A stretch of 64,000 bases of DNA, from positions 261,962-325,961 of the forward strand of contig CAVPKD010000002.1 in NCBI GenBank assembly GCA_963705595.1. The letters run 5' to 3'. A program made the position numbers and the translations under genes. The DNA is from Nitrospirota bacterium (lineage in GTDB: Bacteria > Nitrospirota > UBA9217). This document shows positions 15,161-54,295 of this stretch, piece by piece (the first letter of the stretch is position 1; each line of letters opens with the position of its first letter). Below the pieces are notes generated by a model that saw nothing but the letters and a program-made list of their open reading frames with translations, ran no database searches and had not been told where the DNA came from.

Positions 15161-15164
15161 CTCT

Positions 15165-15624: not shown

Positions 15625-15628
<4 letters not shown>
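15165..15628 (-). CDS. greA: Transcription elongation factor GreA. The 3' end is uncertain.
   Basis: [60 protein letters not shown]...VEYEIQEIE. The start ATG overlaps the carB stop (ATGA). Confidence 0.85.
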
Positions 15629-18936
<3,308 letters not shown>

Positions 18937-19059
18937 GTAATCCTCTACCTCACAGTCCCGATAATCTGAATAACGTCCAAGAGGAAAGGGGGAAATGGAT
19001 GACGGAGAATAAAGATACTGTCATTCCTGATTTCCCTTCTTCCTCTTGCCCATTTTGCC

Positions 19060-19966: not shown

Positions 19967-19998
19967 GTAAACCGTTCAACCACTAAGTTACAAAAGCA

Positions 19999-36969: not shown

Positions 36970-38015
36970 ATGATCTTCAGGGTGTTCGACAAAGAGGAAC
37001 TAAAGAAATTTTTCGACACGCTGGCGGCCAATAATACGGTCGTCGGGCCCGTTGAAACAGGAATCGACAGGAACGGTAGACCTCTGTATGCCTTTGAACA
37101 GGTCTCTGATTTTCAGAAGATCAGGTTACACTATACCACGACCAAGCTGCCTGCAAAGCGGTATTTCCTCCCTTTCAGGGAAACCCTGGCCTCATTCCGA
37201 ATAGACGATGGCGACTGGCACAAGACCGTGGACTTCAACATTGACCGTCCTTATGTCTTCTTCGGACTCCACGCGTGCGACATCAACGCCCTGAATAAGC
37301 TCGACAAGGTCCTCATGGGCAACATTTATCCCATGCCTTACTATGCCGCCAAGCGTAAAAACATGTTCATCATCGGTATCGATTGTCTGCCCCAGCCGTT
37401 CTGCTTCTGCCGCTCCATGGGTTCTGATACGGCGCTTCACGGATTCGATCTGTTCATTACCGACATCGGCGACAGGTATTTCATCGAAATCCTTTCAGCG
37501 ACAGCATACAATCTTCTCCAGACCGTCACAACCCGCGCTCCAGAAGAAGACGACCACCTGCGTTACATGAAGGTCGTGGCAGAAAAGAACAAGAAGTTCA
37601 CCGCGCACGTGGATACGACGGACCTCACCAAGATCCTGGACATGGAATTCCAGTCGCCCCGGTCTGGAAACAGTGGGGCGATAAGTGCCTGGGCTGCGGA
37701 ACGTGCGCCAATGTCTGCCCCACCTGCTACTGCTACGGCGTTGAGGAGACGGTGGACCTCGATCTTCGGGGAGCGCGAAAAATCAAAACCCTCTACTCCT
37801 GCAACGTCGTGGATTTTGCCGAGGTGGCTGGCGGCCACAATTTCAGGCCCGAACGGCATATCCGCCTCAAATACCGCTACTACCACAAGCATCGTGGATT
37901 TGTCGAAGCGTACGAGGAATCGCTCTGCGTCGGGTGCGGCCGCTGCGGTGAGGCCTGTCTTGCCGGGATCACTGTCCCCGAGGTGATCGCAAACGTCCGA
38001 GGAGAGGAGGCCTGA
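36970..38015 (+). CDS. hydB: Sulfhydrogenase (group 3b NiFe-hydrogenase) beta subunit, 4Fe-4S. One indel near 37660.
   Basis: ORF 36970.. carries the HydB N-terminal region. After the frameshift, [25 protein letters not shown]...[11 protein letters not shown] (ORF 37752..38015). Confidence 0.8.
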
Positions 38016-38016
38016 T

Positions 38017-38927
38017 CTGGATACACAGCTGAAATTCATAGACGTCCTGCGGCAACGCCACGGGAGGCACTTCAGGCAACAGGACCTCGGCAAATTTGAA
38101 TACTCGTACAAGGCCGAGATCACCAGCATAGTACGGCTCACAAAAATGGAAAGCCTCTACCGGATCCGGATCATCGATCATGAGGAACGAAAACATTTCT
38201 CCTTCCAGCCAGGCCAGTTCGTCATGCTTGAGGTTCCCGGGCATCGGTGAGGCCCCCTTCTCTATCGCTTCCTCCCCAAGCAGCCGCGATGACATCGAAC
38301 TCTGCATCAGGAAGGTCGGGAACCTCACCTCGTTCCTGGCAAGAGCGACCCGCGGAATGCGCGTCGGTATCCGCGGACCCTTCGGGACCAGCTTCCCCAT
38401 GGAGACCATGCACGGCCAGAACATCCTTCTGATCGCGGGAGGACTAGGACTGGCGCCCTTGCGGTCTCCGATCGCCTATGTGCAGGAGAACCGGAGCACG
38501 TTCCATAATGTGGACATCATCTACGGAGCAAAGTCGGCCTCTCAGCTTCTCTTTACGTTCCAGTACGACATGTGGCGAAGGGACGATATCGGCTTGAGCA
38601 TCATCGTAGAAAGGTCCGATCCTTCATGGAAAGGACCGGTGGGAATGATAACCGACGTCCTCGACCCCCTGCTCTCCGAGCGAGGAGAGTCTTTTGCCAG
38701 GAATACCTTTGCAATCGTGTGCGGCCCGCCGGTCATGTTCAAGTTCATCTGCAACCATGCTGACCGAGATCGGCATTCCCATGCAGAAGATGTTCGTCTC
38801 CCTAGAGCGCCGCATGCACTGCGGCATGGGCAAGTGCTGCCGCTGCAACGTAGGCTCGACTTATACCTGCCTCTCGGGGCCCGTATTCGACTACTGGACC
38901 GTGATGAACCTGAAAGAGGCAATCTGA
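38017..38927 (+). CDS. hydG: Sulfhydrogenase gamma subunit (FAD/NAD(P)-binding, 2Fe-2S). Indels near 38240 and 38760. The start codon is unclear.
   Basis: …[27 protein letters not shown]…[27 protein letters not shown]…[14 protein letters not shown]…GIRGPFG…[15 protein letters not shown]… and C-terminal …[17 protein letters not shown]. Confidence 0.75.
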
Positions 38928-39742
38928 TGGATGACAAGCATACAGAGACCCGGACCTATCTCGGCGTGCCACTTGCCCGTCCGAGCGTCGCGTTCTTTGA
39001 GCTCTCGTCGTGCGAAGGCTGCCAGCTTCAGATCGTGAACAACGAGTCCACGCTCATGGACTTCCTCTCCCTTGTCAACGTGGTGAACTTCCGGGAGGCC
39101 ATGACCGAAAAGACCGATCACTATGACATCGCCTTCGTGGAAGGGAGCGTTACCCGCGCCGACGAGATCGAGCGGCTCAGATCGATCCGGCAGAACGCCA
39201 ATGTCCTCGTGGCCTTCGGCTCCTGCGCGTGTTTTGGCGGCGTGAACCAGCTGAAGAACCGCTTCAAGGATCCCGACTGGGTACGAAGGCAGGTCTACGG
39301 GAACCACCCGATCGATACCAATGAGACCGCCAGGCCGCTCGAGGATTTTGTCAAAGTCGATCTCAGGATCTACGGTTGTCCGGTGAAAAAGGAGGAGGTC
39401 GAGAAGATCGTCACTCATATCGCTGTCGGGAGAACCATCGTACAGCCGAAGTACCCTGTCTGCATGGAATGCAAGGCGAACGAAAATATCTGCCTCTTCG
39501 ATGTCGGAGAGCCCTGCCTGGGGCCGGTCACCCGCGGAGGTTGTGATTCCTGGTGCCCGAACAACCGGTTCGGCTGTTGGGGCTGCCGGGGGCCGGCCGA
39601 TGACGCCAATGTAGGTCAGATGCAGACCATCATGAAAGAGCATGGTTTTTCCGAAGAGACCATACTTGACCGGTTTGAATGTTTCGGCGGGTTCGCGACA
39701 TACGCGGAAGAACTGCGGAAGAACCTCGAAGCAAAAGAATAA
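38927..39742 (+). CDS. hydD: Sulfhydrogenase delta (small) subunit.
   Basis: Intact 271 aa. FELSSCEGCQLQIVN…GSCACFGG…GCP… (NuoB/HycG-like small-subunit Cys ligands). Confidence 0.85.
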   Translation: MDDKHTETRTYLGVPLARPSVAFFELSSCEGCQLQIVNNESTLMDFLSLVNVVNFREAMTEKTDHYDIAFVEGSVTRADEIERLRSIRQNANVLVAFGSCACFGGVNQLKNRFKDPDWVRRQVYGNHPIDTNETARPLEDFVKVDLRIYGCPVKKEEVEKIVTHIAVGRTIVQPKYPVCMECKANENICLFDVGEPCLGPVTRGGCDSWCPNNRFGCWGCRGPADDANVGQMQTIMKEHGFSEETILDRFECFGGFATYAEELRKNLEAKE

Positions 39743-39855
39743 AACATATCTCTCGCAGAGACGCAGAGGACGCTAAGAAAAAAGATCTTAGATTAAAAAA
39801 TCTAGGTTCAGAGCATCACGAGCTTTGCGTCTTTGCGCGAAACCAAAGAGAAAAC

Positions 39856-41130
39856 ATGAAATCAACACGTACCATCGATATACATCATATAACAAGAGTT
39901 GAAGGCCACGGAAACATCAAGATAACTATACAGGACGGACAACTCACGGAGGCCCGGTGGGAAGTGGTTGAAACCCCGCGCTTCTTCGAGGCGATGCTCG
40001 TTGGGAAAAAATGGGAGAACGCACCCTGGATCAGCGGCAGGATATGCGGTATTTGCTCCATCGGGCATACTCTCGCGAGCATTCGCGCGGTAGAGAACGC
40101 CTTCGGTATCGTTCCGAGCGAACAGACCCGGAAACTGCGACTGCTCCTCAAGCACATGGAAACCCTCCAGAGCCATATCCTCCATCTGTATTTTCTCTCG
40201 GCTCCCGACTTTCTGAACACCGGGAGCATCTTTCCCCTCATCGAGTCGCATCCGGACGTGGTCCTGCGGGCCGCGAGGATCAAACAGCTCGCAAACGACC
40301 TCTGCGACTGTGTTGGCGGACGCCGTATACATCCAACGCGGACGGTCGTCGGCGGTTTCACCATGTTGCCCGATAAAAAGGAACTGGTGAAGTTCAAGAT
40401 CCGATTGCAGGAAGTCATGAACGATCTCTGGAAGACGGCGGAACTGTTCCGGACATTCGCCATCCCCGATTTTGCGAGGGAGACCGAGTTCGTTTCACTC
40501 AAGGGAGACGGAAGCTATCCGTTCATCGGCGGCGACCTCGTCTCGACCGACGGCGTGACGAGAAAAGAGCATGATTACAAACTCATGACAAACGAGTATC
40601 TGGTGGAACAATCGACCTCAAAGTGGAGCCGCCTCTCCCGGGAATCGTTCGCCGTGGGCGCCCTTGCCCGCATCAACAATAATTTTTATTTTCTGCATCC
40701 CGCGGCAAAAGAGATTTTACTGAGTTATGGGCTCAGACCCGTATGCCACAACCCTTATATGAACAATATCGCCCAGCTGGTGGAATGCGTGCATGTTGTC
40801 GCCGAGTCCATGGGTTTCATCGACGAGCTTCTTGGGATGGTCTGGAAAGAACCCCGCCAGGCGGCGATTCCCCGAAGCGGCATCGGAGTAGGCGCCGTGG
40901 AAGTGCCACGGGGCATTCTGTACCACAGTTACGGGTTCGACGGGAACGGCAAGATCATCCAATGCGACTGCGTGATCCCCACGAGCCAGAACCACGCCAA
41001 TATCCAGCACGACCTCTGGACGCTTGCGGCGAAGTGCGCATCACAGGGGAAACCGGACCGTGAAATCGAACTCCTTGCCCAGATGCTGGTCCGGTCATAC
41101 GACCCGTGCATCTCCTGCTCGGTCCACTGA
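39856..41130 (+). CDS. hydA: NiFe-hydrogenase large (alpha) subunit, group 3b.
   Basis: Intact 424 aa. N-terminal Ni-binding RICGICSIGH and C-terminal DPCISCSVH, followed immediately by the stop. Confidence 0.9.
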   Translation: MKSTRTIDIHHITRVEGHGNIKITIQDGQLTEARWEVVETPRFFEAMLVGKKWENAPWISGRICGICSIGHTLASIRAVENAFGIVPSEQTRKLRLLLKHMETLQSHILHLYFLSAPDFLNTGSIFPLIESHPDVVLRAARIKQLANDLCDCVGGRRIHPTRTVVGGFTMLPDKKELVKFKIRLQEVMNDLWKTAELFRTFAIPDFARETEFVSLKGDGSYPFIGGDLVSTDGVTRKEHDYKLMTNEYLVEQSTSKWSRLSRESFAVGALARINNNFYFLHPAAKEILLSYGLRPVCHNPYMNNIAQLVECVHVVAESMGFIDELLGMVWKEPRQAAIPRSGIGVGAVEVPRGILYHSYGFDGNGKIIQCDCVIPTSQNHANIQHDLWTLAAKCASQGKPDREIELLAQMLVRSYDPCISCSVH

Positions 41131-41517
41131 TCGGAGCTCGGTGAATTACGGCTATGGTTCTTCGGACCATTTGCGGTTCAATCGGAGGATCAACAGGAGC
41201 AGGAGGAAGATAAGCGGTATCCACACGAAGGGATTGTATGGCTGACTCTCTCCGGTCATGGCAGTTACGCACCGGGACACAGTAACCGTTTGCTCGGTCT
41301 CAGGAGCTTCACTCGTGCTAGGTATCGCCGTTCATGCCGGCACACTAGCAAGCGCTTGTGGTTTATGCTGCTTCGTTTTCCTGGCGATCCAGATCGGCTC
41401 CCCGTCCTTGTCGTGGAGATGATACTCATTATACTAAAGATCCCATTCTTCACACCGTTTCAAATATTTGTGTCCTCCACATCCGTCTGTCTTTCCCGTG
41501 TCAGAAAAGACGGTCGC

Positions 41518-41943
41518 GGGGCAAATCAGAATAACAAGAATGACAGGCAGTTTTTTGATGCGGCGCGTGCATCGCACTGCAGATATACTATCAATCCGAT
41601 GGATGCTCATCAACAGCCCGTCTTTTTTCTTGACAACACCGGTTCGTGATGTTACATTATTTTTCGACTCACAATATATTATATAGGTTGTGCATTGCGG
41701 GGCTGTAGCTCAGCTGGGAGAGCACAAGGCGGGGCAAATCAGAATAACAAGAATGACAGGCAGTTTTTTGATGCGGCGCGTGCATCGCACTGCAGATATA
41801 CTATCAATCCGATGGATGCTCATCAACAGCCCGTCTTTTTTCTTGACAACACCGGTTCGTGATGTTACATTATTTTTCGACTCACAATATATTATATAGG
41901 TTGTGCATTGCGGGGCTGTAGCTCAGCTGGGAGAGCACAAGGC
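41518..41943 (+). repeat. Perfect tandem direct repeat, 2 x 213 bp. Each unit is the tRNA-Ala upstream/promoter region (about 181 bp) plus tRNA positions 1-32. The second unit is part of the functional tRNA.
   Basis: Unit A 41518..41730 and unit B 41731..41943 are identical by eye. The called ORFs 41468..41686 and 41690..41899 give identical peptides from the two units. Confidence 0.85.
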
Positions 41944-41987
41944 TGGCAGTCTTGGGGTCAGGGGTTCGATCCCCCTCAGCTCCACCA
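41912..41987 (+). tRNA. tRNA-Ala (anticodon GGC).
   Basis: GGGGCTGTAGCTCAGCTGGGAGAGCACAAGGCTGGCAGTCTTGGGGTCAGGGGTTCGATCCCCCTCAGCTCCACCA. It has a 7-bp acceptor stem with G3:U70, D-loop AGCTGGGA, anticodon loop CTGGCAG, T-loop TTCGATC and an encoded CCA. Confidence 0.9.
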
Positions 41988-41996
41988 AAATATTGA

Positions 41997-42031
41997 GGGG
42001 TTAGCTTAAAACAGCTAACCCTTCTTCATTT
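41997..42031 (+). terminator. Intrinsic terminator of tRNA-Ala (GGGGTTAGC-ttaaaaca-GCTAACCC + U-rich tract).
   Basis: A perfect 8-9-bp GC stem followed by ttcttcattt. Homologous hairpins follow repeat copies 2 and 3. Confidence 0.6.
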
Positions 42032-42310
42032 GAATGTGCTAAATTTGTGCTAATTCTGTCCAAGACCTCCACACCACTCCGCAAACTGTCAGGGCAATGA
42101 TGCGAATACCACGGCGTCATTTCGAGCGCAGAGATAAACCCTAGCTGAGATTCCTCGCTAATTACTACACAGGCGTTTCCAGTTGATCGCTGATCGACGA
42201 CAGCCGTCTGCCACTATGCCCGTTCTCTGTTGACAGTCATGAACCTTTCGGATACACTTTTGCCAGACAGTTCAGACACTGTGCCTCGCACATGCCATGG
42301 AGGATGCACC

Positions 42311-42508
42311 ATGAACGGGAAAATCATCGGTATCGTTATACTCGCTGCGGGAATCGTATTGCTAATCTTGGGATTCAATGAAATTGGGACATTCGGCTCC
42401 CGTGCGGGCAGGATGCTCGGTGCGGGCGTATCGAATAAGGTTCTGTTCTACTTCAGTGCAGGGGCCATATGCACAATCTTCGGCTTCATACAGATGCGGA
42501 AAAAATAA
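42311..42508 (+). CDS. Small two-TM membrane protein (DUF3185-like).
   Basis: MNGKIIGIVILAAGIVLLILGFNEIGTFGSRAGRMLGAGVSNKVLFYFSAGAICTIFGFIQMRKK. Confidence 0.4.
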   Translation: MNGKIIGIVILAAGIVLLILGFNEIGTFGSRAGRMLGAGVSNKVLFYFSAGAICTIFGFIQMRKK

Positions 42509-42876
42509 CCCTTGCCTCAGATGCGAACATTTATCGATGATGACTGTCAAGAATTGTAAAGTAGACAGTCATTAACAAACAGCTAGAGGGATTACATCCC
42601 CTCCTCTAGGCAATTCATACCGAACAAAGTCAACCGGTTATGATTGAAATAACTCTTTAATAAAACGGAGCTGCCGAGCGATAAGTACGACTTTAGGAAA
42701 TAGCTAAGATAGAAATGGATGGACTATTAGGTTTTGTATTGTGCAGTTCGTGTGTCAGTAGAGATCGGGAAAGGACGATAAAGGACGGAATCCCCTTCCC
42801 TGCAATAATCCGATAACCTCAAGATAAAGCAAGAAAAGGAAGAGGCGGGGAATGTATGCGGGGTAATCGGTTGCAT

Positions 42877-42921
42877 CTGGCAGTCTTGGGGTCAGGGGTT
42901 CGATCCCCCTCAGCTCCACCA
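42877..42921 (+). repeat. tRNA-Ala 3'-half copy 2 (positions 32-76, 45/45 identical). An att-type direct repeat.
   Basis: ctggcagtcttggggtcaggggttcgatccccctcagctccacca. Confidence 0.85.
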
Positions 42922-42931
42922 AGAATTCAAA

Positions 42932-42962
42932 GGGTTAGTCTAAATGACTAGCCCTTTTTTGT
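42932..42962 (+). terminator. Terminator hairpin homologous to the tRNA-Ala terminator (GGGTTAGTC-taaat-GACTAGCCC + T6).
   Basis: Read directly. It carries stem substitutions relative to 41997..42031. Confidence 0.5.
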
Positions 42963-43052
42963 TGGAATGTGATAAGGGTGTGATAATTCTATCCAGGATC
43001 TCGACATCCATCCGCAAATTGTCAGGACCATGATGCGAATACCGTATATATT

Positions 43053-43292
43053 TTATTTCGCGAAATTGATTTTCTTTGACAGAATGTTCAACCTTGAAGA
43101 TAAACTCGATTGTTTCCTTCTTTCCGGTCCTAAATATGAACCGACTGATCCCCTTATCGGATCTCTCTCAATATCTGCCCACTCTCCAGAACGATAAAAC
43201 TTTTTAATTTTCTTTGACGAAATGAGTTCATTGAGGAGCGATGGTCTAACCATATCATACTTATCGTTCTGATACATGACCTTGAGCAGCAT
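43053..43292 (-). CDS. Hypothetical small protein (79 aa) in island 2.
   Basis: ORF MLLKVMYQNDKYDMVRPSLLNELISSKKIKKFYRSGEWADIERDPIRG…. The composition is protein-like, but I recognise no family. Low support. Confidence 0.25.
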   Translation of the reverse strand: MLLKVMYQNDKYDMVRPSLLNELISSKKIKKFYRSGEWADIERDPIRGSVGSYLGPERRKQSSLSSRLNILSKKINFAK

Positions 43293-44010
43293 GGTCTGCC
43301 CTCCCTGACTTAGGATGGGAAAGAACCCATGTAACCGTTTTCGACTGTGAACCTCGAGATCAATATAATCTTACCCACACTTATTGCTGGCCTTTCATCT
43401 GAAGGGACGCTATGCCTGCCTTTTGAGAGAGAACCTTCGTATCTTCCGCATAATATGCGATAGTTTTATTAGGAATCTTCTTGAGGCATTTCTGTCCCCG
43501 AAGTAAGGTGAGTACTCGCATAATGTTCAGGTTTTTTTCTCTGGAAAAGCACTTAGGATACATATCACCTTCCATAATTTTTTTTCTCCGGCAGCCCAGC
43601 CGTCCCGTGTCTGGAACCCGTGAGCTTTGTGCCCCACATTGCGATGGTTTACTCTTTTCGGCGGATCAAGCGTGTCTATAACGACGATATATTTATATGT
43701 ATAACTAAATAGACACAAAAAAACTGATGCCGATTTTTAGATCAGAAAAAACCGGGTCAGATTTTGTTGGAAATAAGCGGTGGCAGTAAGCAGGCTGTTA
43801 ATACTTACATGTAAAATAGCAAATAATAGGTGCAAAGTAAAGTTCAATTTCGGGGTATTTTTAGGGTATTGTTGCAAAAAATCGAAATTATTTAAAAGGG
43901 CAAAACTCATAATAGACAAATTCAATATAGTACGGTCAATATTATGATGCAACGCGCAAAACGGGAAGCCAGACAGAATATCAAGGATTGTGTTTTTCTG
44001 CACTATCGAG

Positions 44011-44054
44011 CTGGCAGCCTTAGGGTCAGGGTTCGATTCCCATTAGCTCCACCA
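44011..44054 (+). repeat. tRNA-Ala 3'-half copy 3, degenerate (about 37/45 identical).
   Basis: ctggcagccttagggtcagggttcgattcccattagctccacca. Confidence 0.75.
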
Positions 44055-44424
44055 AGAATTCAAGAGGTCAGTTTACAAAGCTAACCCTTTTTCATTTGAC
44101 TGTGCTATATCTGTGATGTTTCTTTCCGAAACCTCTTTCCATTTCGCAAATATTCAGCGGTATTTTCATCCCCCCTGTACATTACCAGGGGGCCATTTTG
44201 CCCCACTAATACCGGCTTTTTTAAATTATCGGATATGTTTCAGTTAGCAATTATTAACAAGAATCGCATATTTCCACCTTGTTTAGTGCCGATAAAAATA
44301 GTATCATAATCATCCAATAATCTTGTATGAGACAGAGTAAAGAAAGAAACATTAAGCCGGGGGAAAGATAAGAACTCTGAAGGTAAACGGGGAAATAATC
44401 AAAAGCGGAAGGGATCCTGCGATC

Positions 44425-44886
44425 ATGAAAGGTACAACATATCTATTTCTTGGACTTCTAGCGGCTACTTTAGGAGCTGCCCAGCCAGTTCATGCTACGC
44501 TCGGTGAATCTGCCGATTCAGTCATGACGGATCGTAAGGCGCTCTCAGCGGTGCAAGCCGTTACAACGACACGTAATGCCTACACGGTTCAGGAGATCTC
44601 GTCTGATTCGGTTGCTGTTCGGGAGTACATGTCGCCATCCGGGATGGTATTCGGCATCGCATGGAATGGCCTGACCCACCCAGATCTTACACTGCTTCTA
44701 GGATCTTATGCCGGCGAATACCAGAAATCCGTGAAACAGACTCCTCGCAAGCCGGGCCGCAGGTTCTCTCAAATAAAGACGAACCGAATCGTGGTGGAGA
44801 AATGGGGGCATATGCGAAACCTGCGCGGTCGCGCCTACGTACCATCCTTAATCCCACCCGGAGTGACTGTCGATGAAATCAAGTAA
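44425..44886 (+). CDS. Secreted DUF2844-like protein.
   Basis: Signal peptide MKGTTYLFLGLLAATLGAAQPVHA. The body …YTVQEISSDSVAVREYMSPSGMVFGIAWNGLTHPDL… resembles the small proteins that pair with DUF3443 lipoproteins in Burkholderiales. This is from memory and unverified. Confidence 0.45.
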   Translation: MKGTTYLFLGLLAATLGAAQPVHATLGESADSVMTDRKALSAVQAVTTTRNAYTVQEISSDSVAVREYMSPSGMVFGIAWNGLTHPDLTLLLGSYAGEYQKSVKQTPRKPGRRFSQIKTNRIVVEKWGHMRNLRGRAYVPSLIPPGVTVDEIK

Positions 44887-46087
44887 AATACCAATTCTTT
44901 TCCTGATCCTTGTTCTGGTAGCCGGTTGTGGCGGCGGTGGATCAGGCACACCCCCGCCGAAAGGCAGTGCCGCTCTTGCCAACAACGTGCTTCCCATCAC
45001 CGTGAATGGATCGCTCTGTTCGGCCAGCACCTCAGCTTCCTACCTCAATAAGCCCTGCGTCAGCGTTACGGTCTGCACTCCCGGCACGTCAACCTGCCAG
45101 ACGATCAACGACATCCTCTTGGATACGGGAAGCTTCGGGCTGCGGATATTCAAGCAGGCGCTGACGACTGTTTCCCTGACACAGATAATCAGCGGTTCCG
45201 GATCAGTTGCCGAGTGCGCGCAGTTCAATGGTGGCTTATCGGAATGGGGTCCTGTTGTGTTAGCGGACGTTACCCTAGGCAAAGAAACCGTCAATAATGT
45301 TCCTATCCAGATCATAGATTCCACCTTCGGCACTGTCCCCAGCGCCTGCGGAACCCCGGATGCAACGCCGTCAGCCGCGGGCTTTACCGGGATACTGGGG
45401 GTCGGCGTCTTTGTCCAGGATTGCGGTTCAGTCTGCGCAAACCAAGCAAACAATGGAATCTATTACTCCTGCAGCGGATCGACATGCACGGGCATAACAG
45501 TTCCCCTATCCAGTCAGGTCCAGAATCCGGTGGTGTTCCTTCCTCCGGATAATAACGGCGTGAGTGATAATAACGGTGTGATCGTGGAGCTTCCGACCGT
45601 TCCTTCGAATGGTTCGCAATCAGTTAATGGAATTCTTGTGCTCGGGATCAGTACAAAGACCAACAATGTACCTTCCGGAGTCACCGCATATAACACAGAC
45701 CCAATCGGTGAGATCACCACAAGTCTCAGTGGTACCTACAGTGGGATTATTGATAGCGGATCGAACGGGCTGTTTTTCACACCTCCCTCACCAGGCCTTC
45801 TCCCGAATTGCCCGTCTCCTGATTCTGCATGGTTCTGCCCCTTGTCGATAACGACCCTTTCCGCGAAAAACCAAGGGGCATCGGGATCGCCGAGCGGCGA
45901 CGTTTTCTTCCAGATAGGCAACTTCATGAGCCTAACAAAGTCACCTAACAACGTCTTCTCCAACATTGGCGGGTCATCACCGGGCCTATTCGATTGGGGA
46001 CTTCCGTTTTACTTTGGACGAAACATCTGTGTGGGAATTGAAGGAAAGGCGTCCAGCATCGGCACCGGACCTTACTTTGCCTATTAA
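44873..46087 (+). CDS. Lipoprotein with a pepsin-like (bilobal aspartic protease, DUF3443-like) fold.
   Basis: Lipobox LVLVAGCGGG. Two aspartic-protease-like motifs at a pepsin-like spacing: INDILLDTGSFGLRIF (compare FDTGSSNLWV) and GIIDSGSNGLFF (compare VDTGTSLL). The start overlaps the preceding gene. Confidence 0.5.
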   Translation: MKSSKIPILFLILVLVAGCGGGGSGTPPPKGSAALANNVLPITVNGSLCSASTSASYLNKPCVSVTVCTPGTSTCQTINDILLDTGSFGLRIFKQALTTVSLTQIISGSGSVAECAQFNGGLSEWGPVVLADVTLGKETVNNVPIQIIDSTFGTVPSACGTPDATPSAAGFTGILGVGVFVQDCGSVCANQANNGIYYSCSGSTCTGITVPLSSQVQNPVVFLPPDNNGVSDNNGVIVELPTVPSNGSQSVNGILVLGISTKTNNVPSGVTAYNTDPIGEITTSLSGTYSGIIDSGSNGLFFTPPSPGLLPNCPSPDSAWFCPLSITTLSAKNQGASGSPSGDVFFQIGNFMSLTKSPNNVFSNIGGSSPGLFDWGLPFYFGRNICVGIEGKASSIGTGPYFAY

Positions 46088-46329
46088 AGGTGAGATGAAG
46101 TTCTGTGTTTAAACATTGTTGCTTCCTGAACTTGTCATGGCTGACACTCCTTGAAACTGCTAAAGATTCACTCAGAATTCGTTGGCGCCTATTCGGCCGA
46201 AATACTGTTAATGGTGCGGCATGTTCATTGCTGATCCTAGACCTCGCCTCATAGATATAACTCTGGCCGGCATGTTGTGCTTCACCAGGAGAGTTCAGCC
46301 CGGCCGCTGAAACGTTCGCTAGAGATAGA

Positions 46330-46842
46330 ATGAAATTTTCATACAGCATAATTCGCTTGGTCATTTTAGCGCTCATCCTGGTCCTGCCAGGCTGCACATT
46401 CACGAAACTGCTGACAACCCGGTTAGTGAAGCCAACCTTCACCTATAAGGGCTTCGAGCTGGTCGATGCCTCGCAAAGCAGCTTAATCGTGAACTTTCTG
46501 TTCTCCGCGCATAACCCGAATAAAGCAGGATTGAAGAACATAACCTGCTCGTATGAGCTTTTTGTGGAAGGAAATAAAATTCTGACAGGAAATGACGTTC
46601 CTTTGGCGCTTAACCCGAACGGCGACACGGAGATCAAGGTTCCTGCAACGATCGCTTATTCGGACCTCTTCCCCGTTCTGGGGTCTGTCGTACAACGGAT
46701 TTTATCAGGTCAGAAAACAATACCTATCACTATAAATGCCGTCTTTTCCGGTAAACCTGCGACCTATAGCGAAGCAGGAAAAGAAGAAGCGATTTCCTTC
46801 GAGATGAAATTGATCAAGACCGCCGACATTCCCTTACCGTAA
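46330..46842 (+). CDS. LEA14-like / WHy-domain lipoprotein.
   Basis: Lipobox LVLPGCTF. Then KPTFTYKGFELVD…SLIVNFLFSAHNPNKAGLKNITCSYELFVEGNKILTG…, typical of LEA_2/WHy. Confidence 0.5.
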   Translation: MKFSYSIIRLVILALILVLPGCTFTKLLTTRLVKPTFTYKGFELVDASQSSLIVNFLFSAHNPNKAGLKNITCSYELFVEGNKILTGNDVPLALNPNGDTEIKVPATIAYSDLFPVLGSVVQRILSGQKTIPITINAVFSGKPATYSEAGKEEAISFEMKLIKTADIPLP

Positions 46843-47162
46843 GGGAAAATAATCAAAGGACAGTGAAGGAATTCGATTGTATTTTGTAGCGGCATATACC
46901 TGAACTCTGCACTGACAACAATACGGTCCCATGTGCATTTTTGAACTAGTATTATTTAATGAAACATCCTTGCAACAAAAATACTATTGATTGTAGTAGT
47001 CCGGTTGGATCAATTCCGAAGGAGCGATGCCTAGTGAAAGCAGCGAGATAGCTGCTAAGACGGAGAGTAAATTATGCCGTCTTCCTTTGAACTCACAGCT
47101 TATGCTTGGCTAAAGTACATATTGCAATTGGATAACTTTGCGTATATGAAATTCAATCTAAA

Positions 47163-47996
47163 ATGATGACCAAAACGGGATGGTTCATTATTGCTTTTGT
47201 GTCCATAATATTATTTCACCTGAGTCTATCGCAAGCAGAAGAACCCGATCTGTCCACGGTTCAGACGCAAAAGGAAGACAACGATATAAACAAAAAACCT
47301 CCGGACCGCGTGGTTAAGCTAGACAAGGAGTATTTTACCGGATAGTGGACGGACACAAAGAACATTCTTACTTCCCCAGCTCGACGGGAGACAAAGGATT
47401 GGATAAAAGCATCTGCCATCTTTGGTATATCAATAGGGTTGTATACACAGGATGGTAAAATTCAGACGTGGGTACAGAAAAATAAGAATAACACCAATTC
47501 TCATCTTGCTGATGATGCCTCAACTACATTACGTTATGCGATACCGGTCCTGGGAGGACTTGGCCTATACGGCTACATCGCCGAAGACGAAAGAGCCAAA
47601 AGAACCTTCTTGCTGAGTGCCGAGAGCGTCATCATTACCGGCGTTTTTGTTCAAACTCTTAAACACTCAACAGGCCGTCATCGGCCTAATACTGGTGATC
47701 ATTATGATACATGGTCCGGCCCCACCATGAAAGGCTCATATCTGTCGTTCCCTTCTGGTGATGCCTCGACAGCCTTTGCCATAGCATCCGTTGTAGCTTC
47801 TGAATATGATAATATTGTGGTACCTACCCTGGCATACACAGCCGCATCGCTCATAGCTCTTGAACGAGTATACAACAACGCGCATTGGTCTTCCGATGTT
47901 TTTGTGGGTTCCGCGATAGGATATTTTACCGGAAAAGCGATCGTAGCTTCGCATAGGAACGTTTGCGAGAGCAACACCTATCGGTTGTTCCTCTGA
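47163..47996 (+). pseudogene. PAP2-family phosphatase paralogue with an in-frame TAG at 47343..47345 and substituted catalytic motifs (PSGD instead of PSGH).
   Basis: ORFs 47163..47345 (signal peptide) and 47439..47996 are in the same frame. The latter has KHSTGRHRP, SFPSGDAS and ERVYNNAHWSSDV (the KxxxxxxRP / PSGH / SRxxxxxHxxxD pattern with H to D and S to E). Confidence 0.5.
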
Positions 47997-48440
47997 TAGA
48001 CGCAAAGGGCGTTGGGTTACTAGTGACTTATAGGTATTAATCATCCGGTCCTTCGCATAATTCCCGCCCGCCTTCCCGCACTGGTGCTCGTGGTCACCTG
48101 GCTGAGGTTCATGTGCAGAATTCAACTAATATCCGTTAGAGTTTCAATTCGTCGTAACCCATATACTTGTGGGTGTTCACGAGAGGGATCAGGATTTGAG
48201 TGAAGAGATGAAGATCGATTGAATCATTCAGTATCTGATCCTTCCCGTGCCTCACGAAGTTTCCATTCTTAGCAACTCATCAATTTTCAACCCGGATTTA
48301 TTAGCATATACCCTTAAAATACCCATTGGAAAATATTGACAAGTCATAATATCTGTGCTTGTATCTAAGTAGTTCTCGATAAAGCCAAACCCTTCGCAAG
48401 AGGGGGACGGAAAGCGACGGGTCTTAAGAGACAAAGATGG

Positions 48441-48490
48441 CCGAGCTGCCGAGGGATGATTCCTTTGGTTAGCTCGGCCTTTTGTTTTGT
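48441..48490 (+). terminator. Strong hairpin (GGCCGAGCT…AGCTCGGCC, 9-bp perfect stem) followed by TTTTGTTTTG. An orphan intrinsic terminator in an island 3 intergenic region.
   Basis: Read directly. No annotated plus-strand gene ends within 440 nt upstream. Confidence 0.45.
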
Positions 48491-48770
48491 ATCATAATTT
48501 CCGTGATTAATCTTGTTCATCATCCGACAAAACCAAACGTCTTGTGAGAACGGGCGGGAAACGGTTAGTCCTTGAAGATCAAGGTCGTCGCGGGGTGTTT
48601 CGAATAACCTAGCCACAATCGGAATATAACATATGATGGCACAAAAGCGCACATAGGTTTCGCTATTCAGCAGAAGTTGTAATTGAATGTCATTAAGCAG
48701 ATGTCGAATTTAATTAACGTGGACATGTCCACATCAAGAACTTGGAAATATCAAGGCGCAGAGAGGACGA

Positions 48771-49346
48771 ATGTTTTTGAATCGATTGAGGCTACGTATG
48801 GAATCATCTACAGAAAACATAACAATTAAAATCCCGGTCGAAGTGGGACAGATCAGTTCCGCGGGAATAGAGAGGACGAAGAATCTCGTACGGGCAGCTC
48901 TAATCGCGGCCGTGGCGCTCGCTTCCGTTTACGCCTCCAAAGTGCCCGATGCGGCGGCAGGTTCATTCTCCACGGTCATCCGGGTGAACGCCGTTGTCCT
49001 GGCACGAACGCAACTGAAGCCCCTTCGACAGCCGGCGATGCTTGTCATAACGGAGACCGACATTCAGCGGGGTTACGTTGAAGTCAGCGGCGCCTCGATC
49101 TTCGAGATCTGGAGCAACGATCCGGCCGGATGTGTTCTCACCTTCGAGTCAAGCGATTTTCCCTACCGCGAAGCGGCTGTCAGAGTGATGGGCAGAGAAA
49201 TTATTATATATCCGACGGGCGGCATGATCCTTATGCCGGTCAGAGGAAGACAGCAGATCGCTCTGGACTACCGGTTTATCCTTACTACCGAAGCACAGCC
49301 CGGCACCTACGCATGGCCCCTCTCCGTTTCTGTTAATCCGCGGTGA
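48771..49346 (+). CDS. Hypothetical membrane-anchored periplasmic protein (191 aa).
   Basis: RBS gagagga 4 nt upstream. TM/signal anchor LVRAALIAAVALASVYA. No recognisable family. Confidence 0.35.
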   Translation: MFLNRLRLRMESSTENITIKIPVEVGQISSAGIERTKNLVRAALIAAVALASVYASKVPDAAAGSFSTVIRVNAVVLARTQLKPLRQPAMLVITETDIQRGYVEVSGASIFEIWSNDPAGCVLTFESSDFPYREAAVRVMGREIIIYPTGGMILMPVRGRQQIALDYRFILTTEAQPGTYAWPLSVSVNPR

Positions 49347-49788
49347 AGGGAGCGGGGATGGTGGAGCAGATGGTCGCGATGCCGACTGTGACTGACACTG
49401 TTCATACAGAACGAATCCCCAGGCAAGGACAAGGAAGCCAAGTGGCTCCCTACGCTGAAGGAACAATTCTTCATGGCTATGCTTCTCTACATGCCGAAAG
49501 CCAAAGTACTGGAAGGCAAGAAGCGCACCGCCGCTGAACCGCGACGTTCATGTGTACGTTTCAACTGGCATTTTGTATCTCCTCTCTATCGGTCCCCGTT
49601 TCGACCTTGTTGATGTACTTAACAGATTGGCTTAGAAACACCGTGCCATATTTATACTAAAAAATATCCGTAAGTGCAAAATCATAGTAATAAACAAACT
49701 CATCGCCATGCGGCCACCCTTTGATCCGGCCATTAAAAAAGGGAGACTAGGCAACAAACCAAGGATTGTTGTTTTCTGCCCTGCCCTA

Positions 49789-49822
49789 CTGGTTGTCTTG
49801 GGGTCAGGGGTTCGATTCCCAC
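49789..49822 (+). repeat. tRNA-Ala 3'-half copy 4, partial (positions about 32-63, lacking the acceptor 3' strand).
   Basis: ctggttgtcttggggtcaggggttcgattccc, then diverges. Confidence 0.65.
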
Positions 49823-50092
49823 GAGTGAACATGTGCTGCGCGGGACGCGTCCTGGTGACGCCGGGACCCGGATTTCGCGCGCTGCTGTTGACACATGCAT
49901 CCTTGACCTATATCATGGCTGAGCAACTCTTTGTTCATCGTAAGATCAATCTTGGCCATGACAAACTGTAATAAAAAGGTGTGGCGGAGGTCAATAACTG
50001 CTCGTCATTGTATTGAATAATGGAGCCGTGCTGGATTCAAATCGATCATGCCAAAAGGGTTGGCATATCGGATGCACCGCACATTACCACGC

Positions 50093-50293
50093 TTATACAT
50101 TTCTTTTTATGCGTTTACCTCCCCTCGGACTGGATTTTAAAACAAACTCCCTCTCCTCAACCGCTCTAATTAAAACAACTGGCTTGCCATTCTTTGTCAC
50201 GGTGACATCCTCTCTCTTTTTATTAATTTCGGCGACAATTGCTGTCGCATGCGCACGAAGCTCTGAAACTGTTATAAATCTCAAAGCACTCAC
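50093..50293 (-). CDS. Phd/YefM-family antitoxin-like protein (orphan).
   Basis: MSALRFITVSELRAHATAIVAEINKKREDVTVTKNGKPVVLIRAVEE…, the YefM N-terminal pattern. I translated the downstream minus-strand region and found no toxin-sized ORF. Confidence 0.45.
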   Translation of the reverse strand: MSALRFITVSELRAHATAIVAEINKKREDVTVTKNGKPVVLIRAVEEREFVLKSSPRGGKRIKRNV

Positions 50294-50480
50294 CTCGTTC
50301 TAATCAGAATTTGGGATTCTCGACGGTAACTGATCAAGATTTTCATTGAAAAAACCGCCCGAAATCATCTGCAAATATAACCCTTAGGTCCGTCCTTTCA
50401 GATAGCTTCAATTACTACTGATACCGGTAAGAAATTCGCATACCGATGAGTTGTTCTCCTAATTGTCGGGCCGCACGAGT

Positions 50481-52685
50481 TTAGCCTTTCTTGTCTAACA
50501 TTTCTCTTATCTTGGTGAGGAGCTCATGGGGTGTAACTGGCTTTGTAACGAAATCCGCCTCTTCGTCTAAAATATCTTTTCGCTGAATAATATCTGCCGT
50601 ATAGCCGCTGGTAAACAATATTTTAACATCGGGCTGTATCTTCTTTATTGCAATACTGGCTTCTTTGCCGCTTTTCTTAGGCATTACTACATCGAGCATA
50701 ACGAGTTGTATCGTGTCTTTATTCGCTATAAACTTATTTATGCCGTCCTCTCCATCTACTGCTTCTATGACTTTATAACCAAATTCCTCAAGCACGGCCT
50801 TCGAAAGAGCCCTAACCTCTTTATTATCCTCTGTAACCAGTATGGTCTCATTACCACCCTTGGGAGTAATAGCCACTGCGGCTTTTGGCTCTTCACTTTT
50901 TGCTTTAACCAAAGGGAGGTATATTTTGAATGTCGTGCCCATCCCCGGCTCGCTGTATTCCGTGATGTGACCGTTGTGCTGCTTGATTATTCCATATACT
51001 ATCGAAAGCCCAAGACCTGTCCCCTTCCCAAACTCCTTGGTCGTAAAAAAAGGCTCAAATATCTTTTGTCTGGTTTGTTCATCCATGCCCACACCGCTAT
51101 CGGTCACCGTTAACAGGACATACAGACCAGGTTTCTCCAGATCGTACGTTTTTGCATAGTTCGCATCCAAGTATTTGGTTTCTGTACTGATGGACAGTAG
51201 CCCGCCATTAGGCATGGCATCACGCGCATTGGTGCACAAGTTCATCAAGACCTGTTCTATTTGGCCGGGGTCTACCATTACCGTCACGTTCTTATCGACA
51301 AGTTGTGTCTTTAGTTCGACATCCTCACCAATAACCCTGTGCAGAAGTTTCTCCGTTCCCTTGATAAGCTCATTAAGATCTATCTGTTTCGGGCTGATTA
51401 CCTGTTTTCTGCTGAATGTAAGGAGCTGACGGGTCAGATCGGCTGACTTCTCTGCTATGCTCAGTATCTGTGTCGCGAACGACTTTAATGAGCTGTCATT
51501 CTCTACCTTAAAGCTCAAAAGGGTTGCGTAGCCGATTATTGCCGTTAGCATATTATTAAAATCATGCGCAATACCGCCTGCAAGCTGACCCACTGCCTCC
51601 AATTTTTGTGCTTGGTGGAGTTGTGCCTCGAGTTTGCTTTTTTCTTCTTGAACCTTTCTCTCATGTGTGAGGTCGTGCATAGTCATCAATATACTTATAG
51701 GCTGTTCTTGTTTGTCGCGGACTATTTTAACGGTGATCTCAATTGGTCGTCCGGCTGGATTATCAGGATTATCTACCTCCATGATAATGAACGCGTCACG
51801 TTTTTCCTCCTGTGCCTGGCATGCGGGGCAGAGGACCATTTCGCCATAGGGATGAATGATCTCTGCAATATGGCGTCCAACAGCGGTTTCTGGAGTTCTC
51901 CCTGTCATTGTATAGAATGATTTGTTGGCTCGCATTAAACGTCGATTGAGATCGAGCAGGTAGATAACATCCTGAGATGCATCCATTGCAGCCCTCCACT
52001 CCGTCGCAGCTTGCTCTACGGCTCTCTCAATTCGTTTGCGTTCGGTTATGTCAGTGGCGACCCCAGTCGTCCCTATCAGTTCATTTCGCTCGTTTCTAAC
52101 AGGATAGTACCATATTTCAAATACGATTCCGTCTATATTGGTCACTGTGGTGAACGCCTCACCCGCTAATGCACGACGGACTCCCTCGAGCACCGAAGGT
52201 GCGTCGCGGTAAACTTCGAAGACCGACCGGCCTACGACCTCGCCGGGTTTGAGGCCCAGCGCTAACAGTCCTCTCCCCTCAGAAAGCGTAAACACTCCCC
52301 CCCGATCCAGTGCGAAAAGCACCACCGGCGTATTTTCCATGACGGTACGCAGACGCGACTCGCTTTTCCGCAGTTCCAGCTCCGCACGTTTGCGCTCCGC
52401 GATTTCCTGCTGAAACCGCTCATTGATTTTTTTTAGTTCGGCGGTATGTTTTATAAAATAAATAACTATGGGCGCAACGATCAAGGGGATAAACAAAGCA
52501 TCAAGCGCGCCTATTATCAGTAATTTTGGTGAAAATTTTCCATACCAGATGTAACTCTGGATGGTATTCAAGAATGCCGTGAACAGTTCAGAGACCACGA
52601 CAGAAAGCCAGATAAAATGCCAGGGATTGATTCTTTTCTGCTTAGCAAGATTTTTTTCGGTCATGTTGGGCATTTCCTTCCGCAT
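50481..52685 (-). CDS. Hybrid sensor histidine kinase / response regulator (TM - PAS/PAC x2 - HisKA - HATPase - REC).
   Basis: Intact 734 aa. H-box IAHDFNNMLTAI. N/G-boxes NLCTNARDAMP, DSGVGMD, GTGLGLSIV. REC VMLDVVMPKKSG. The real start is probably MPNMTEK or MTEK. Confidence 0.85.
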   Translation of the reverse strand: MRKEMPNMTEKNLAKQKRINPWHFIWLSVVVSELFTAFLNTIQSYIWYGKFSPKLLIIGALDALFIPLIVAPIVIYFIKHTAELKKINERFQQEIAERKRAELELRKSESRLRTVMENTPVVLFALDRGGVFTLSEGRGLLALGLKPGEVVGRSVFEVYRDAPSVLEGVRRALAGEAFTTVTNIDGIVFEIWYYPVRNERNELIGTTGVATDITERKRIERAVEQAATEWRAAMDASQDVIYLLDLNRRLMRANKSFYTMTGRTPETAVGRHIAEIIHPYGEMVLCPACQAQEEKRDAFIIMEVDNPDNPAGRPIEITVKIVRDKQEQPISILMTMHDLTHERKVQEEKSKLEAQLHQAQKLEAVGQLAGGIAHDFNNMLTAIIGYATLLSFKVENDSSLKSFATQILSIAEKSADLTRQLLTFSRKQVISPKQIDLNELIKGTEKLLHRVIGEDVELKTQLVDKNVTVMVDPGQIEQVLMNLCTNARDAMPNGGLLSISTETKYLDANYAKTYDLEKPGLYVLLTVTDSGVGMDEQTRQKIFEPFFTTKEFGKGTGLGLSIVYGIIKQHNGHITEYSEPGMGTTFKIYLPLVKAKSEEPKAAVAITPKGGNETILVTEDNKEVRALSKAVLEEFGYKVIEAVDGEDGINKFIANKDTIQLVMLDVVMPKKSGKEASIAIKKIQPDVKILFTSGYTADIIQRKDILDEEADFVTKPVTPHELLTKIREMLDKKG

Positions 52686-53051
52686 GGCATAAATTTGCTT
52701 GGTACCATATACTCGATTTTAAGCAGATCAATTATTAACGATCTCCTTAGATAATATTCGCGGTAATTTAGCGCTATAATATTAGCTATTATATTAGCTA
52801 TTTAATTGCTGCATGTCAAGCATACAATGTAGTATATGGCATTACCAAATCTCACGCCAACTTGATTAAAATAAGACATCTTTCGATGTTGCAGAAAGGG
52901 ACTTCATGGCAAGGGCATGCGCAACTGTCGAATTTCGCTGTTTTCCGTGTCGAGATCCCTCCTGAAATCTCTATTTCGGTTCAGTACCGGCCGTCGTCAC
53001 CGGTTACATGAATCTTCTTTACCATCGTTCTTTCCATCTCCTCCATTGACA

Positions 53052-53852
53052 ATGGTTTTAGAAAAGCATAGACTGACGTCTATTATTTTCGACGTATTTT
53101 CGAAGCTCACGCATTCGGTAACAGTGTACCTATTAATTTATTTTTTTATCCCAGGGATCATTTTTGGAATGCATATCTGTATGAATGTGAAAAAGATCGG
53201 CATCAGCTTCCTGCTAGTTGTCCTGCTTGTCCTATGCAGCTACTATTTTATAGACGCAAGAACCGCCTTGTTAGTCAATAGAGTATGGATGTCCCATGCT
53301 CGTCTGGCTGTCTTTTCCGCTAACATTCCCGACTTCTTATTTTCCATAGTTTGTCTCATTACTGTCATTGCATGGACAGCATATTTCTACCTCACTCATA
53401 AAGGCATTTACGACACACATACGCGGTTCTTTCAGCTCGTTGCCATTACGATCCCGCTAACATTCTTTCTGAAATCCTCCCTGAAGCATGTGGTTGGCAG
53501 AATCGACACAAGATTCTGGTTACATCATCCCGGTTTTAAAGAGTTCCACTGGTTTCACGGAGGGGGAAATTACACCAGTTTTCCTTCGGGGCATATGGCT
53601 GTTTTTATGGCTCTCGCTATCGCCCTGTGGATGTTCTATCCTCGCTATCAGTCCGCATATATTAGCTTCTTATCGGTTCTGGCGCTGGCTCTCATTATTA
53701 CCAATTATCATTTCATCAGTGATGTTGTTGCCGGTGCTTACCTCGGTTTCTTTGTTAATTATTTTACCCATCTTGGCTTAACATTCTTCTCAAATAGAAG
53801 GATGAGAACTGGTGAATATGATCAGAAGAATGAGAGTCGACAATTATTATAA
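53052..53852 (+). CDS. PAP2-family membrane phosphatase. The ORF is open from 52917, so the start is uncertain.
   Basis: Multi-TM. SFPSGHMAVF and HFISDVVAGAYLGF (PSGH and SRxxxxxHxxxD-like motifs, both intact). Confidence 0.55.
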   Translation: MVLEKHRLTSIIFDVFSKLTHSVTVYLLIYFFIPGIIFGMHICMNVKKIGISFLLVVLLVLCSYYFIDARTALLVNRVWMSHARLAVFSANIPDFLFSIVCLITVIAWTAYFYLTHKGIYDTHTRFFQLVAITIPLTFFLKSSLKHVVGRIDTRFWLHHPGFKEFHWFHGGGNYTSFPSGHMAVFMALAIALWMFYPRYQSAYISFLSVLALALIITNYHFISDVVAGAYLGFFVNYFTHLGLTFFSNRRMRTGEYDQKNESRQLL

Positions 53853-54182
53853 GCGATCTACTTCATGTCGCTGAGATATATCTTCGTTCCCATTAAATAC
53901 TAGCCCGGTTCAGGACAGGCTGCACCTGTTCCGAATAATCGTACATCTGGTTGTCTGAAACGGGCAAAAAAGTGGCTGATTTTACCACAGCTCATTTCAT
54001 TGTTTCCTTTTCCCCAGGAATCCCAGACCTAGCACATTTGGGACCGCATAGTTTTTCTACAAGAGACAGTCAGAAACTTGCAATAATGGACATGGAATAT
54101 ATTTTGATACCCGTCTCCCCTCATAAATTAAAACAACCACTTGACAATACCCCTAAAAGGGATAGAATATTTATTAGACTGA

Positions 54183-54224
54183 CTGGCAGTCTTGGGGTCA
54201 GGAGTTCTATTCGCCTCGACTCCA
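54183..54224 (+). repeat. tRNA-Ala 3'-half copy 5, degenerate (outermost att-type repeat).
   Basis: ctggcagtcttggggtcaggagttctattcgcctcgactcca. It is preceded by a sigma70-like TTGACA-16-TAGAAT at 54151..54178. Confidence 0.65.
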
Positions 54225-54295
54225 GTAAGCAATGAAAAGGGTTGGCCAACAGGTCAGCCCTTTATTTTTGCTACGACATCACGAAGGAGCCCCAC

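Follow-up and report, generated by a model that had tools for sequence, protein, structure and literature searches.

A perfect tandem duplication of the promoter and 5′ half of a tRNA-Ala gene at an island integration site in a Nitrospirota genome assembly

The DNA analyzed here is a 64,000-nt stretch (hereafter, the window) from a Nitrospirota bacterium of the UBA9217 lineage (assembly GCA_963705595.1, contig CAVPKD010000002.1, positions 261,962–325,961 of the forward strand). In this window, the promoter and the first 32 nucleotides of a tRNA-Ala(GGC) gene were present twice, head to tail, and the right end of the duplicated unit fell on the point in the anticodon loop at which genomic islands enter the gene. 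The reading we prefer, to which we assign a probability of about 0.45, is that the duplication is real and very recent and that it arose as a by-product of island traffic, through an illegitimate join at the boundary of attachment-site (att) identity and strain homology. The duplication itself is probably neutral.

Structure of the duplication

Tandem Repeats Finder reported a perfect tandem repeat of 2.0 copies with a period of 213 bp at 41516–41943 (100% matches, no indels, score 856). A repeat search of the window likewise found positions 41516–41728 and 41729–41941 to be 100% identical, and this was the sole long tandem repeat in the 64 kb. Each unit comprised 181 bp of upstream DNA and tRNA-Ala(GGC) nucleotides 1–32. 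A preliminary description had placed the two units at 41518–41730 and 41731–41943, which is the same repeat shifted by a shared 2-nt GC. Its account of their identity and content (about 181 bp of upstream sequence, a TTGACA...TACATT promoter and tRNA nucleotides 1–32) was borne out by the sequence, ARAGORN, and Rfam. The features of the region were as follows.

41483..41513 (+), imperfect hairpin CCGTCT...AGACGG, read from the sequence, ending 3 nt before the left breakpoint
41516..41728 (+), unit A, starting GCGGGGCAAATC and holding promoter P1 and tRNA nucleotides 1–30; 100% identical to unit B; single copy in all relatives
41630..41658 (+), promoter P1, TTGACA-N17-TACATT, TG-extended, with a T-run upstream; 10/12 match
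41699..41730 (+), orphan 5′ half, tRNA-Ala(GGC) nucleotides 1–32, followed by GGGGCAAATC in place of T33
41728..41733 (unstranded), duplication junction, ...CACAAG-GC-GGGGCAAATC, with 2-nt microhomology
41729..41941 (+), unit B, which supplies the near promoter of the intact gene and is continued by 41942–41987 to complete that gene
41843..41871 (+), promoter P2, same sequence as P1 and the nearer of the two to the intact tRNA; 10/12 match
41912..41987 (+), intact tRNA-Ala(GGC), called by ARAGORN and Rfam (61 bits); the only intact copy called
41995..42024 (+), tRNA terminator hairpin, overlapping the end of the integrase remnant of the first island relic, E1

The tRNA nucleotides 31–32 that follow unit A are the shared GC at 41729–41730 (the junction), and the same dinucleotide occurs at 41516–41517 (the left boundary) and 41942–41943 (after unit B). 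Read directly, the junction joins ...CACAAGGC to GGGGCAAATC, and the left breakpoint has the context GGTCGC followed by GGGGCAAATC. An example 31-mer across the junction is AGCTGGGAGAGCACAAGGCGGGGCAAATCAG. The GC shared at the join leaves the position of the right breakpoint ambiguous within G30–T33, and thus it equals the att identity boundary to within 1 nt. For a breakpoint located at random within 41131–41987, the chance of falling at C32 is about 3 in 857. The orphan 5′ half was not called as a tRNA by ARAGORN or Rfam.

The intact tRNA-Ala(GGC) sequence was identical in nine related Nitrospirota genomes, where it also lay downstream of the hydrogenase, and the promoter hexamers upstream of it were invariant in these genomes, across 10 related sequences compared. 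There was no terminator-like site between the orphan 5′ half and the second promoter and gene, and therefore read-through from P1 into the intact gene is plausible from the sequence, as the preliminary description had suggested. Folding of the long and short precursors did not recover the cloverleaf even for the normal precursor, and thus it says nothing about interference by the orphan half. The open reading frames (ORFs) 41468–41686 and 41690–41899 across the repeat are not genes: the earlier view of them as artefacts was supported by a look-up in a protein collection, in which neither they nor ORF 41365–41649 had an exact protein on record. The overlapping ORF 41290–41649 had no Pfam match.

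The 7-mer GCGGGGC was found at 41516, 41697, 41729, and 41910, which is the start of each unit and tRNA positions −2 to +5. Slippage between its copies was rejected as the origin of the repeat, since it would yield a unit of 181 bp rather than 213 bp, and no role for the 7-mer was found.

Comparison with related strains

Relatives were retrieved with the flanking NiFe-hydrogenase gene and were metagenome-assembled genomes of Nitrospirota/Thermodesulfovibrionia. Among the 100 loci compared, 18 carried tRNA-Ala(GGC), and every one of the 18 had a single 5′ half. Seven contigs of the same species spanned the site at 95–99% nucleotide identity. Six of them were JGI contigs (L084, L085–L088, and L091), of which at least L085 (sample 3300038454) came from Everglades sediment, and the seventh (L092) came from an ENA MEGAHIT assembly. 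In all seven, the alignment with the window ran to 41730 and picked up at 42877, so that they contained one unit and no E1. Compared with E1-less genomes, the window has in excess one contiguous block of 1146 bp (41731–42876) directly after C32, comprising the second unit, the 3′ half, and E1. The E1-less haplotype reads ...CACAAGG-CTGGCAG...CCACCAAGAATTC, and the E1-bearing one reads ...CCACCAAAATATTGAGG. E1 was also found at 99.9% identity in contig L081 (SRR28042119).

The upstream sequence of the units was 98–99% identical to the single copy in the relatives. Both units shared a private allele, C at 41562/41775 vs. G in six relatives. This indicated that the duplication is younger than the strain split, or else that the units were made identical by polishing.

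In two further contigs (L093 and L094, 98.6% identity) a different island, with the specificity subunit of a type I restriction-modification system, occupied the same point. With nothing, E1, or another island after the tRNA at 98.6% identity or more, the site is in current use within the species. The L093/L094 island (1–1462 and 1–998, respectively) also encoded a 225-aa protein and stood immediately left of a 3′ half matching window position 42877. Its right arm contained TGTGCTAAAA direct repeats, which resembled the TGTGCTAA and TGTGATAA repeats after the 3′ halves of the window; such repeats are likely arm-type binding sites of the integrase.

Variation was also found next to the left boundary. 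The loop of the hairpin at 41483–41513 was dense in single-nucleotide polymorphisms (SNPs) among strains, with the variation in the alignment at 41500–41504. Two JGI contigs of 87–90% identity, L083 (3140–3170) and L082, were without the 4.7-kb hydrogenase cluster (window 36796 to ~41525); there, the HEAT-repeat gene abutted the tRNA-Ala promoter region, and the two met at a CAGA(A/T)AA microhomology. On its right side, this deletion ended within about 10–40 nt of the left boundary of the duplication. The hairpin and the nearby deletion end fit either a fragile DNA spot or a node of the assembly graph.

The island array and E1

Copies of the tRNA 3′ half, all beginning with CTGGCAG (= C32) and all on the + strand, were found at 41943, 42877, 44011, 49789, and 54183, and 3′ halves beginning at C32 were also found in L002, L078, L083, L084, L085, and L093. 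This site is a hotspot for islands that encode a tyrosine integrase of 365 aa and have an attP identity block beginning at C32. In L006 and L010 the integrase (Phage_integrase, SAM_5, Int_N) was encoded on the minus strand directly after the tRNA. In the window, tblastn found the last 39, 34, 20, and about 68 (degenerate) codons of the integrase after successive 3′ halves, and Pfam found no integrase at 42–54 kb. The islands of the window are relics of the tRNA-targeting tyrosine-integrase family, not working members. The only other tyrosine recombinase in the window was a Xer-like gene at 11712–12593, 30 kb away.

The locus is a tandem array of decayed islands of the known anticodon-centred class in a tRNA gene. 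It has an intact tRNA gene followed by displaced fragments in direct orientation (42877, 44011, 49789, and 54183), and the islands were polymorphic for presence and absence with precise ends at the repeats (E1, and the other island in L093 and L094). The preliminary description had noted that the partial tRNA of unit A stops within 1 nt of the starts of the 3′-half copies, which was confirmed for five copies at 41943–54183. Its picture of a tRNA bracketed by duplications of both halves was right, with the correction that the 3′-half copies are ordinary island attR relics. The parts of the array were as follows.

41943..42876 (+), E1, a 934-bp integrase-less island relic with 3′ half, tRNA terminator, integrase remnant, DUF3185 gene, and right arm
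42010..42126 (−), integrase remnant of E1, last 39 codons, 79% identical by tblastn to residues 327–365 of the L006 integrase, including the catalytic Tyr region
42311..42508 (+), DUF3185 membrane protein (65 aa, Pfam), the only gene in E1
42877..42922 (+), displaced 3′ half, attR of E1, 46 nt, 100% identical to 41943–41988
42943..43044 (−), C-terminal integrase remnant of the second relic, E2, 34 codons, 62% identity by tblastn
44011..44135 (unstranded), third 3′-half copy, ~75% identity, with a 20-codon integrase remnant at 44076–44135 (−)
49789..50094 (unstranded), fourth 3′-half copy, first 32 nt 91% identical, with a degenerate remnant at 49915–50094 (−) containing an internal stop
54183..54270 (+), fifth and most decayed 3′-half copy, with its own terminator; a peptidase M20 gene follows

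Judged by its sequence, E1 is a genuine non-autonomous island relic. Perfect 46-bp repeats flanked it, the left one being the 3′ half at 41943–41988. Its right arm (42738–42861) matched, at 74% identity, the arm on the left side of a degenerate 3′ half in L085, and its exact DUF3185 protein was also found in the Logan data of ERR12036778 and SRR28042119. The copy at 42877–42922 serves as the working 3′ half of the gene in E1-less strains. The fifth copy, at 54183–54270, probably represents both the gene's original 3′ end and the outer limit of the island array.

In E1 and E2, the integrase remnants were truncated at nearly the same codon (residues 327 and 332 of 365), while their DNA was only ~79% identical, which suggests a recurrent deletion endpoint or a common truncated ancestor. 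Islands at the same tRNA were also seen in related genomes. The island of L078 (12614–20531) was a defence island with a BamHI-like endonuclease, an N6/N4 methylase, an AIPR protein, and a HEPN protein; no ORF in it matched an integrase, of which only a 95-codon remnant was left, and reverse-complement pieces of a tRNA T-arm (TGGAGGGGGATCGAACC) followed both terminators. A serine recombinase (Recombinase and Zn_ribbon_recom domains) was encoded in the island of L010 (16578–17621, −), and an IS110-family transposase in that of L002 (13767–15074, +).

Origin of the duplication

Here, a single illegitimate join with 2-nt microhomology was proposed to account for the duplication: it would have put a second 213-bp segment (promoter plus nucleotides 1–32) directly behind the first, with its right end set by the att/homology boundary. 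Two routes could lead there. In route (a), a nick or break in attL at the integrase crossover point would have been repaired at a position 213 bp upstream on the sister chromosome, so that a tandem duplication arose. In route (b), an E1-bearing fragment starting at 41518 would have recombined with an E1-less genome through the homology on its right side (3′ half and E2); its free left end would then have been ligated where the homology stops, at C32, and the order unit–unit–3′half–E1–3′half would result in one step.

Several observations agree with this proposal. C32 is the crossover boundary of the integrase and also the point at which the homology of E1-bearing and E1-less sequences ends when read from the right. 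The copies are head to tail, share a GC microhomology at the join, and are single in the 18 related loci, as expected of tandem duplication by illegitimate recombination; a microhomology of 2 nt is typical of illegitimate joins. The contiguous 1146-bp block is what route (b) predicts. We know of no simple assembler failure that would put a junction exactly at C32. Such a junction is hard to explain because, when read from the left, the E1-bearing and E1-less haplotypes diverge only 46 nt further right.

A second explanation, to which we give substantial weight though less than an even chance, is that the duplication is an assembly artefact. A long-read assembler may have joined E1-less sequence up to C32 with an E1-bearing read from its start at 41518, keeping an untrimmed overhang of 1146 nt, and polishing would then have made the units identical. 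Both haplotypes exist in nature, and C32 is the exact boundary of their homology read from the right. In this scenario, the left boundary would lie wherever a read happened to end, and the 2 nt would be shared by chance with a probability of 1 in 16.

The following results weigh against a real duplication, and most of them favour an artefact. The identity of the units is equally expected from the polishing of an artefact. No integrase is present in cis within the window. The 23-mer across the junction had no exact match in JGI metagenome contigs and IMG/VR, and the junction was found in none of the 100 loci. A near-identical strain also appeared to have one unit, as judged from contig coordinates only. 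In the read set ERR12036778, a Logan contig (k = 31) encoded an identical 424-aa hydrogenase and corresponded by gene coordinates to window 38868–41728. It stopped exactly 30 nt into the tRNA, as a unitig does when the tRNA is common to other species; the same logic accounts for the start of the E1 contig at 41963. A contig of 5147 nt from this set agreed with the gene coordinates of the window across 43102–48248 (four gene starts checked). With the junction present, the first k-mer of the unit would have two predecessors and the first contig should stop at ~41545; since it was unbroken past 41516, this read set appears to contain a single unit together with E1. ERR12036778 is not proven to be the source sample, and ERR15459715 was a better match for one small ORF of the window.

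The quality of the assembly is a further point on that side. The carB gene (15035–21187, −) was broken up across reading frames into six or more overlapping ORFs that carried consecutive pieces of the CPSase domains, and carA was also split. Insertions of 2, 1, and 1 nt were found at 37663, 38242, and 38758 relative to both L085 (97%) and L089 (98.3%), and they put the Fe-S and FAD/NAD-binding genes, which lie upstream of the hydrogenase subunit genes, out of frame. The carB and carA frameshifts suggest numerous assembly indels, pseudogenes being a less likely cause. Such frameshifts are typical of error-prone long-read assembly, and with many of them in essential genes this assembly is untrustworthy at fine scale. 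A look-up of ORF 36970–37986 for recurrence of the frameshift in other read sets found no exact protein on record. In the same regions, the MGS domain of carB was fused in-frame to greA, the split in carA lay at about 20475, and the insertions created a fused 520-aa ORF at 38180–39742.

However, there were no indels relative to L092 over the 5.1 kb flanking the site, and the Logan contigs were exactly colinear with the window over ~9 kb around it, which indicated that the local sequence is good. Long reads normally span 426 bp, and polishing should remove an unsupported 213-bp insertion. In addition, the artefact would need E1-less and E1-bearing haplotypes to have co-occurred in the source sample. 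To our knowledge, no documented behaviour of an assembler retains an untrimmed overhang of this kind.

The short-read contigs L089, L090, and L084 started or ended near the hairpin, at 41492–41589. These ends were considered as support for a branch in the assembly graph and set aside, since they are accounted for by SNP-level strain variation at 41500–41504, L084 and L090 being two strains from one sample.

A real duplication may also be read as the footprint of a break at the integrase crossover point, or of a one-sided, homology-facilitated insertion of an island-bearing fragment, that left a free-standing 5′ tRNA half under its own promoter as a possible step towards a split tRNA. We consider this fuller reading unlikely.

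It is quite improbable that an integrase acting in trans recombined attL with a pseudo-att site at 41516–41518 on the sister chromosome, in an unequal site-specific exchange. In its favour, the right breakpoint coincides with the crossover boundary, the lineage has active integrases of this family, and documented cases of island integrases using secondary sites exist for other elements, such as SGI1 (PMC2297512). However, the left breakpoint is unlike the core CACAAGG-CTGGCAG-TCTTGGGG, matching it at 3 of 10 positions after GC, and there was no right arm resembling TCTTGGGG at 41506–41530. The best core-like 8-mer, CAGGCAGT (41545–41552, 7/8), was 28 nt off the breakpoint, with ~0.16 expected by chance. 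A GCGGGG.AAT likeness to the right end of E1 was not kept in the homologous arm of L085, and no island integrase was found in the 64-kb window. The preliminary description had offered a site-specific crossover or an assembly artefact as the origin. A crossover-related event and an artefact are both still live, but a normal site-specific crossover was not supported, given this left breakpoint, the mere 2-nt microhomology, and the lack of an island integrase in the window.

The weakest alternative, which we regard as having hardly any probability, is a selected arrangement in which the doubled promoter raises the output of tRNA-Ala(GGC), or the 5′ half acts as a regulatory RNA or as a step to a split tRNA: both promoters are intact and of the conserved type with no terminator between them and the gene, but the arrangement is known from one assembly only and absent in 18/18 related loci, with 100% identity, selection has had no time to become visible, nothing after the orphan half could pair with a 3′ half, an intact gene is present, and thermodynamic folding was uninformative.

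Other routes were rejected. A single integrase-mediated insertion of a unit–3′half–E1 circle would need two aberrant events and an att-like junction, which is absent, and Campbell-type homologous insertion of such a circle would give the wrong order, unit–3′half–E1–unit–3′half. An RNA-level origin, by reverse transcription of a precursor, was set aside because the unit begins ~150 bp before the point where transcription is predicted to start. When the right end of E1 was compared with the region around the left breakpoint, no extended homology was found, the local alignment being no better than shuffles (166/300 reached its score). The motif GCGGGG.AAT (only at 41516/41729, 42845, and 42858) was not conserved in the homologous L085 arm and was treated as chance.

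Comparison with known systems

Williams, in 2002, reportedly described tandem island arrays in tRNA genes with anticodon-centred attP. In the Islander collection, 2083 of 3919 islands belong to the anticodon-centred class, and only four arrays contain three or more islands (Hudson, Lau and Williams, 2015; PMC4383910). The locus studied here shares with such arrays an intact tRNA followed by direct copies of its 3′ part from the anticodon loop, each an island end, an integrase adjoining the tRNA in intact relatives, and islands that are present or absent among strains. It differs in that all four islands keep only the last 20–68 integrase codons, in being an array of at least four, which is rare, and in the duplication of the 5′ half and host promoter, which is not a product of island integration. 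A 5′ fragment of the tRNA gene is displaced by 159 of the 3919 Islander islands (PMC4383910). These also leave an orphan 5′ tRNA fragment upstream of an intact gene; however, foreign DNA lies between the two there, whereas here it is 181 bp of host upstream sequence.

Homology-facilitated illegitimate recombination in natural transformation was reportedly described by de Vries and Wackernagel in 2002, and the term is in use elsewhere (PMC8116780). In it, homology anchors one end of the incoming DNA while a few bases of microhomology suffice to join the other, so that the non-homologous stretch is inserted where homology stops, and it could give the observed order in one step. Its usual microhomologies are 3–8 nt vs. 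2 nt here, and the process is only a candidate for this locus.

In tRNA-dependent lysogeny, the phage brings its own tRNA gene, and attP and attB share only ~10 bp (Guerrero-Bustamante and Hatfull, 2024; PMC10865867). As there, the inserted block relative to E1-less genomes is a complete promoter and tRNA gene with a broken host copy upstream. However, the promoter and 5′ half here are the host's own, including the private allele, and the gene is completed by its 46-nt 3′ half as usual.

Two sigma-70-type promoters in series upstream of a stable RNA gene are also known from the tandem P1–P2 promoters of the rrn operons of Escherichia coli. Here, by contrast, the promoters are identical duplicates 213 bp apart with a dead gene fragment between them, not a conserved and differentially regulated pair. 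The locus also differs from a split tRNA gene of the Nanoarchaeum type: an intact gene is present, and after the orphan half the next repeat unit begins, with no pairing sequence.

Other features near the array

A c-di-GMP-I-GGC riboswitch aptamer (RF03167, 74.6 bits, E = 7.6e-16) was found at 48375–48454 (+) in the third island relic, with ORF 48771–49346 (191 aa, no Pfam match) lying about 320 bp downstream of it. A segment of 507 bp (47591–48097) was present in the window and in the Logan contig of ERR12036778 and absent from the 98.7% relative L084 (4953–4955). The DUF3443 protein (window 44873–46087) had 404 aa in the window and in L092–L094, and 574 aa, including an extra Big_2 domain, in the Everglades strains L085–L088 and L091 (L085 13874–15598).

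Implications

The surrounding locus is ordinary and well understood: a tRNA gene repeatedly used by islands, the older of which have decayed. The unusual part is the 5′ duplication, which is not what island integration produces. The arrangement is probably without function, being either a very recent recombination accident or an assembly error. In the latter case, small islands that some strains have and others lack can leave long-read metagenome assemblies with perfect duplications that look biologically plausible.

If the duplication is real, the intact tRNA stands behind two identical promoters 213 bp apart, so that a strong stable-RNA promoter has been doubled. Transcripts from the upstream promoter would then begin with a leader of ~246 nt containing the dead 5′ half, to be cleaved off by RNase P, the orphan half would be functionless, and the duplication would easily be lost by recombination between the units. 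It would be an unusually clean natural case of an illegitimate join anchored at an att/homology boundary, and it would mean that attachment sites of islands in tRNA genes can give rise to rearrangements on the promoter (5′) side as well.

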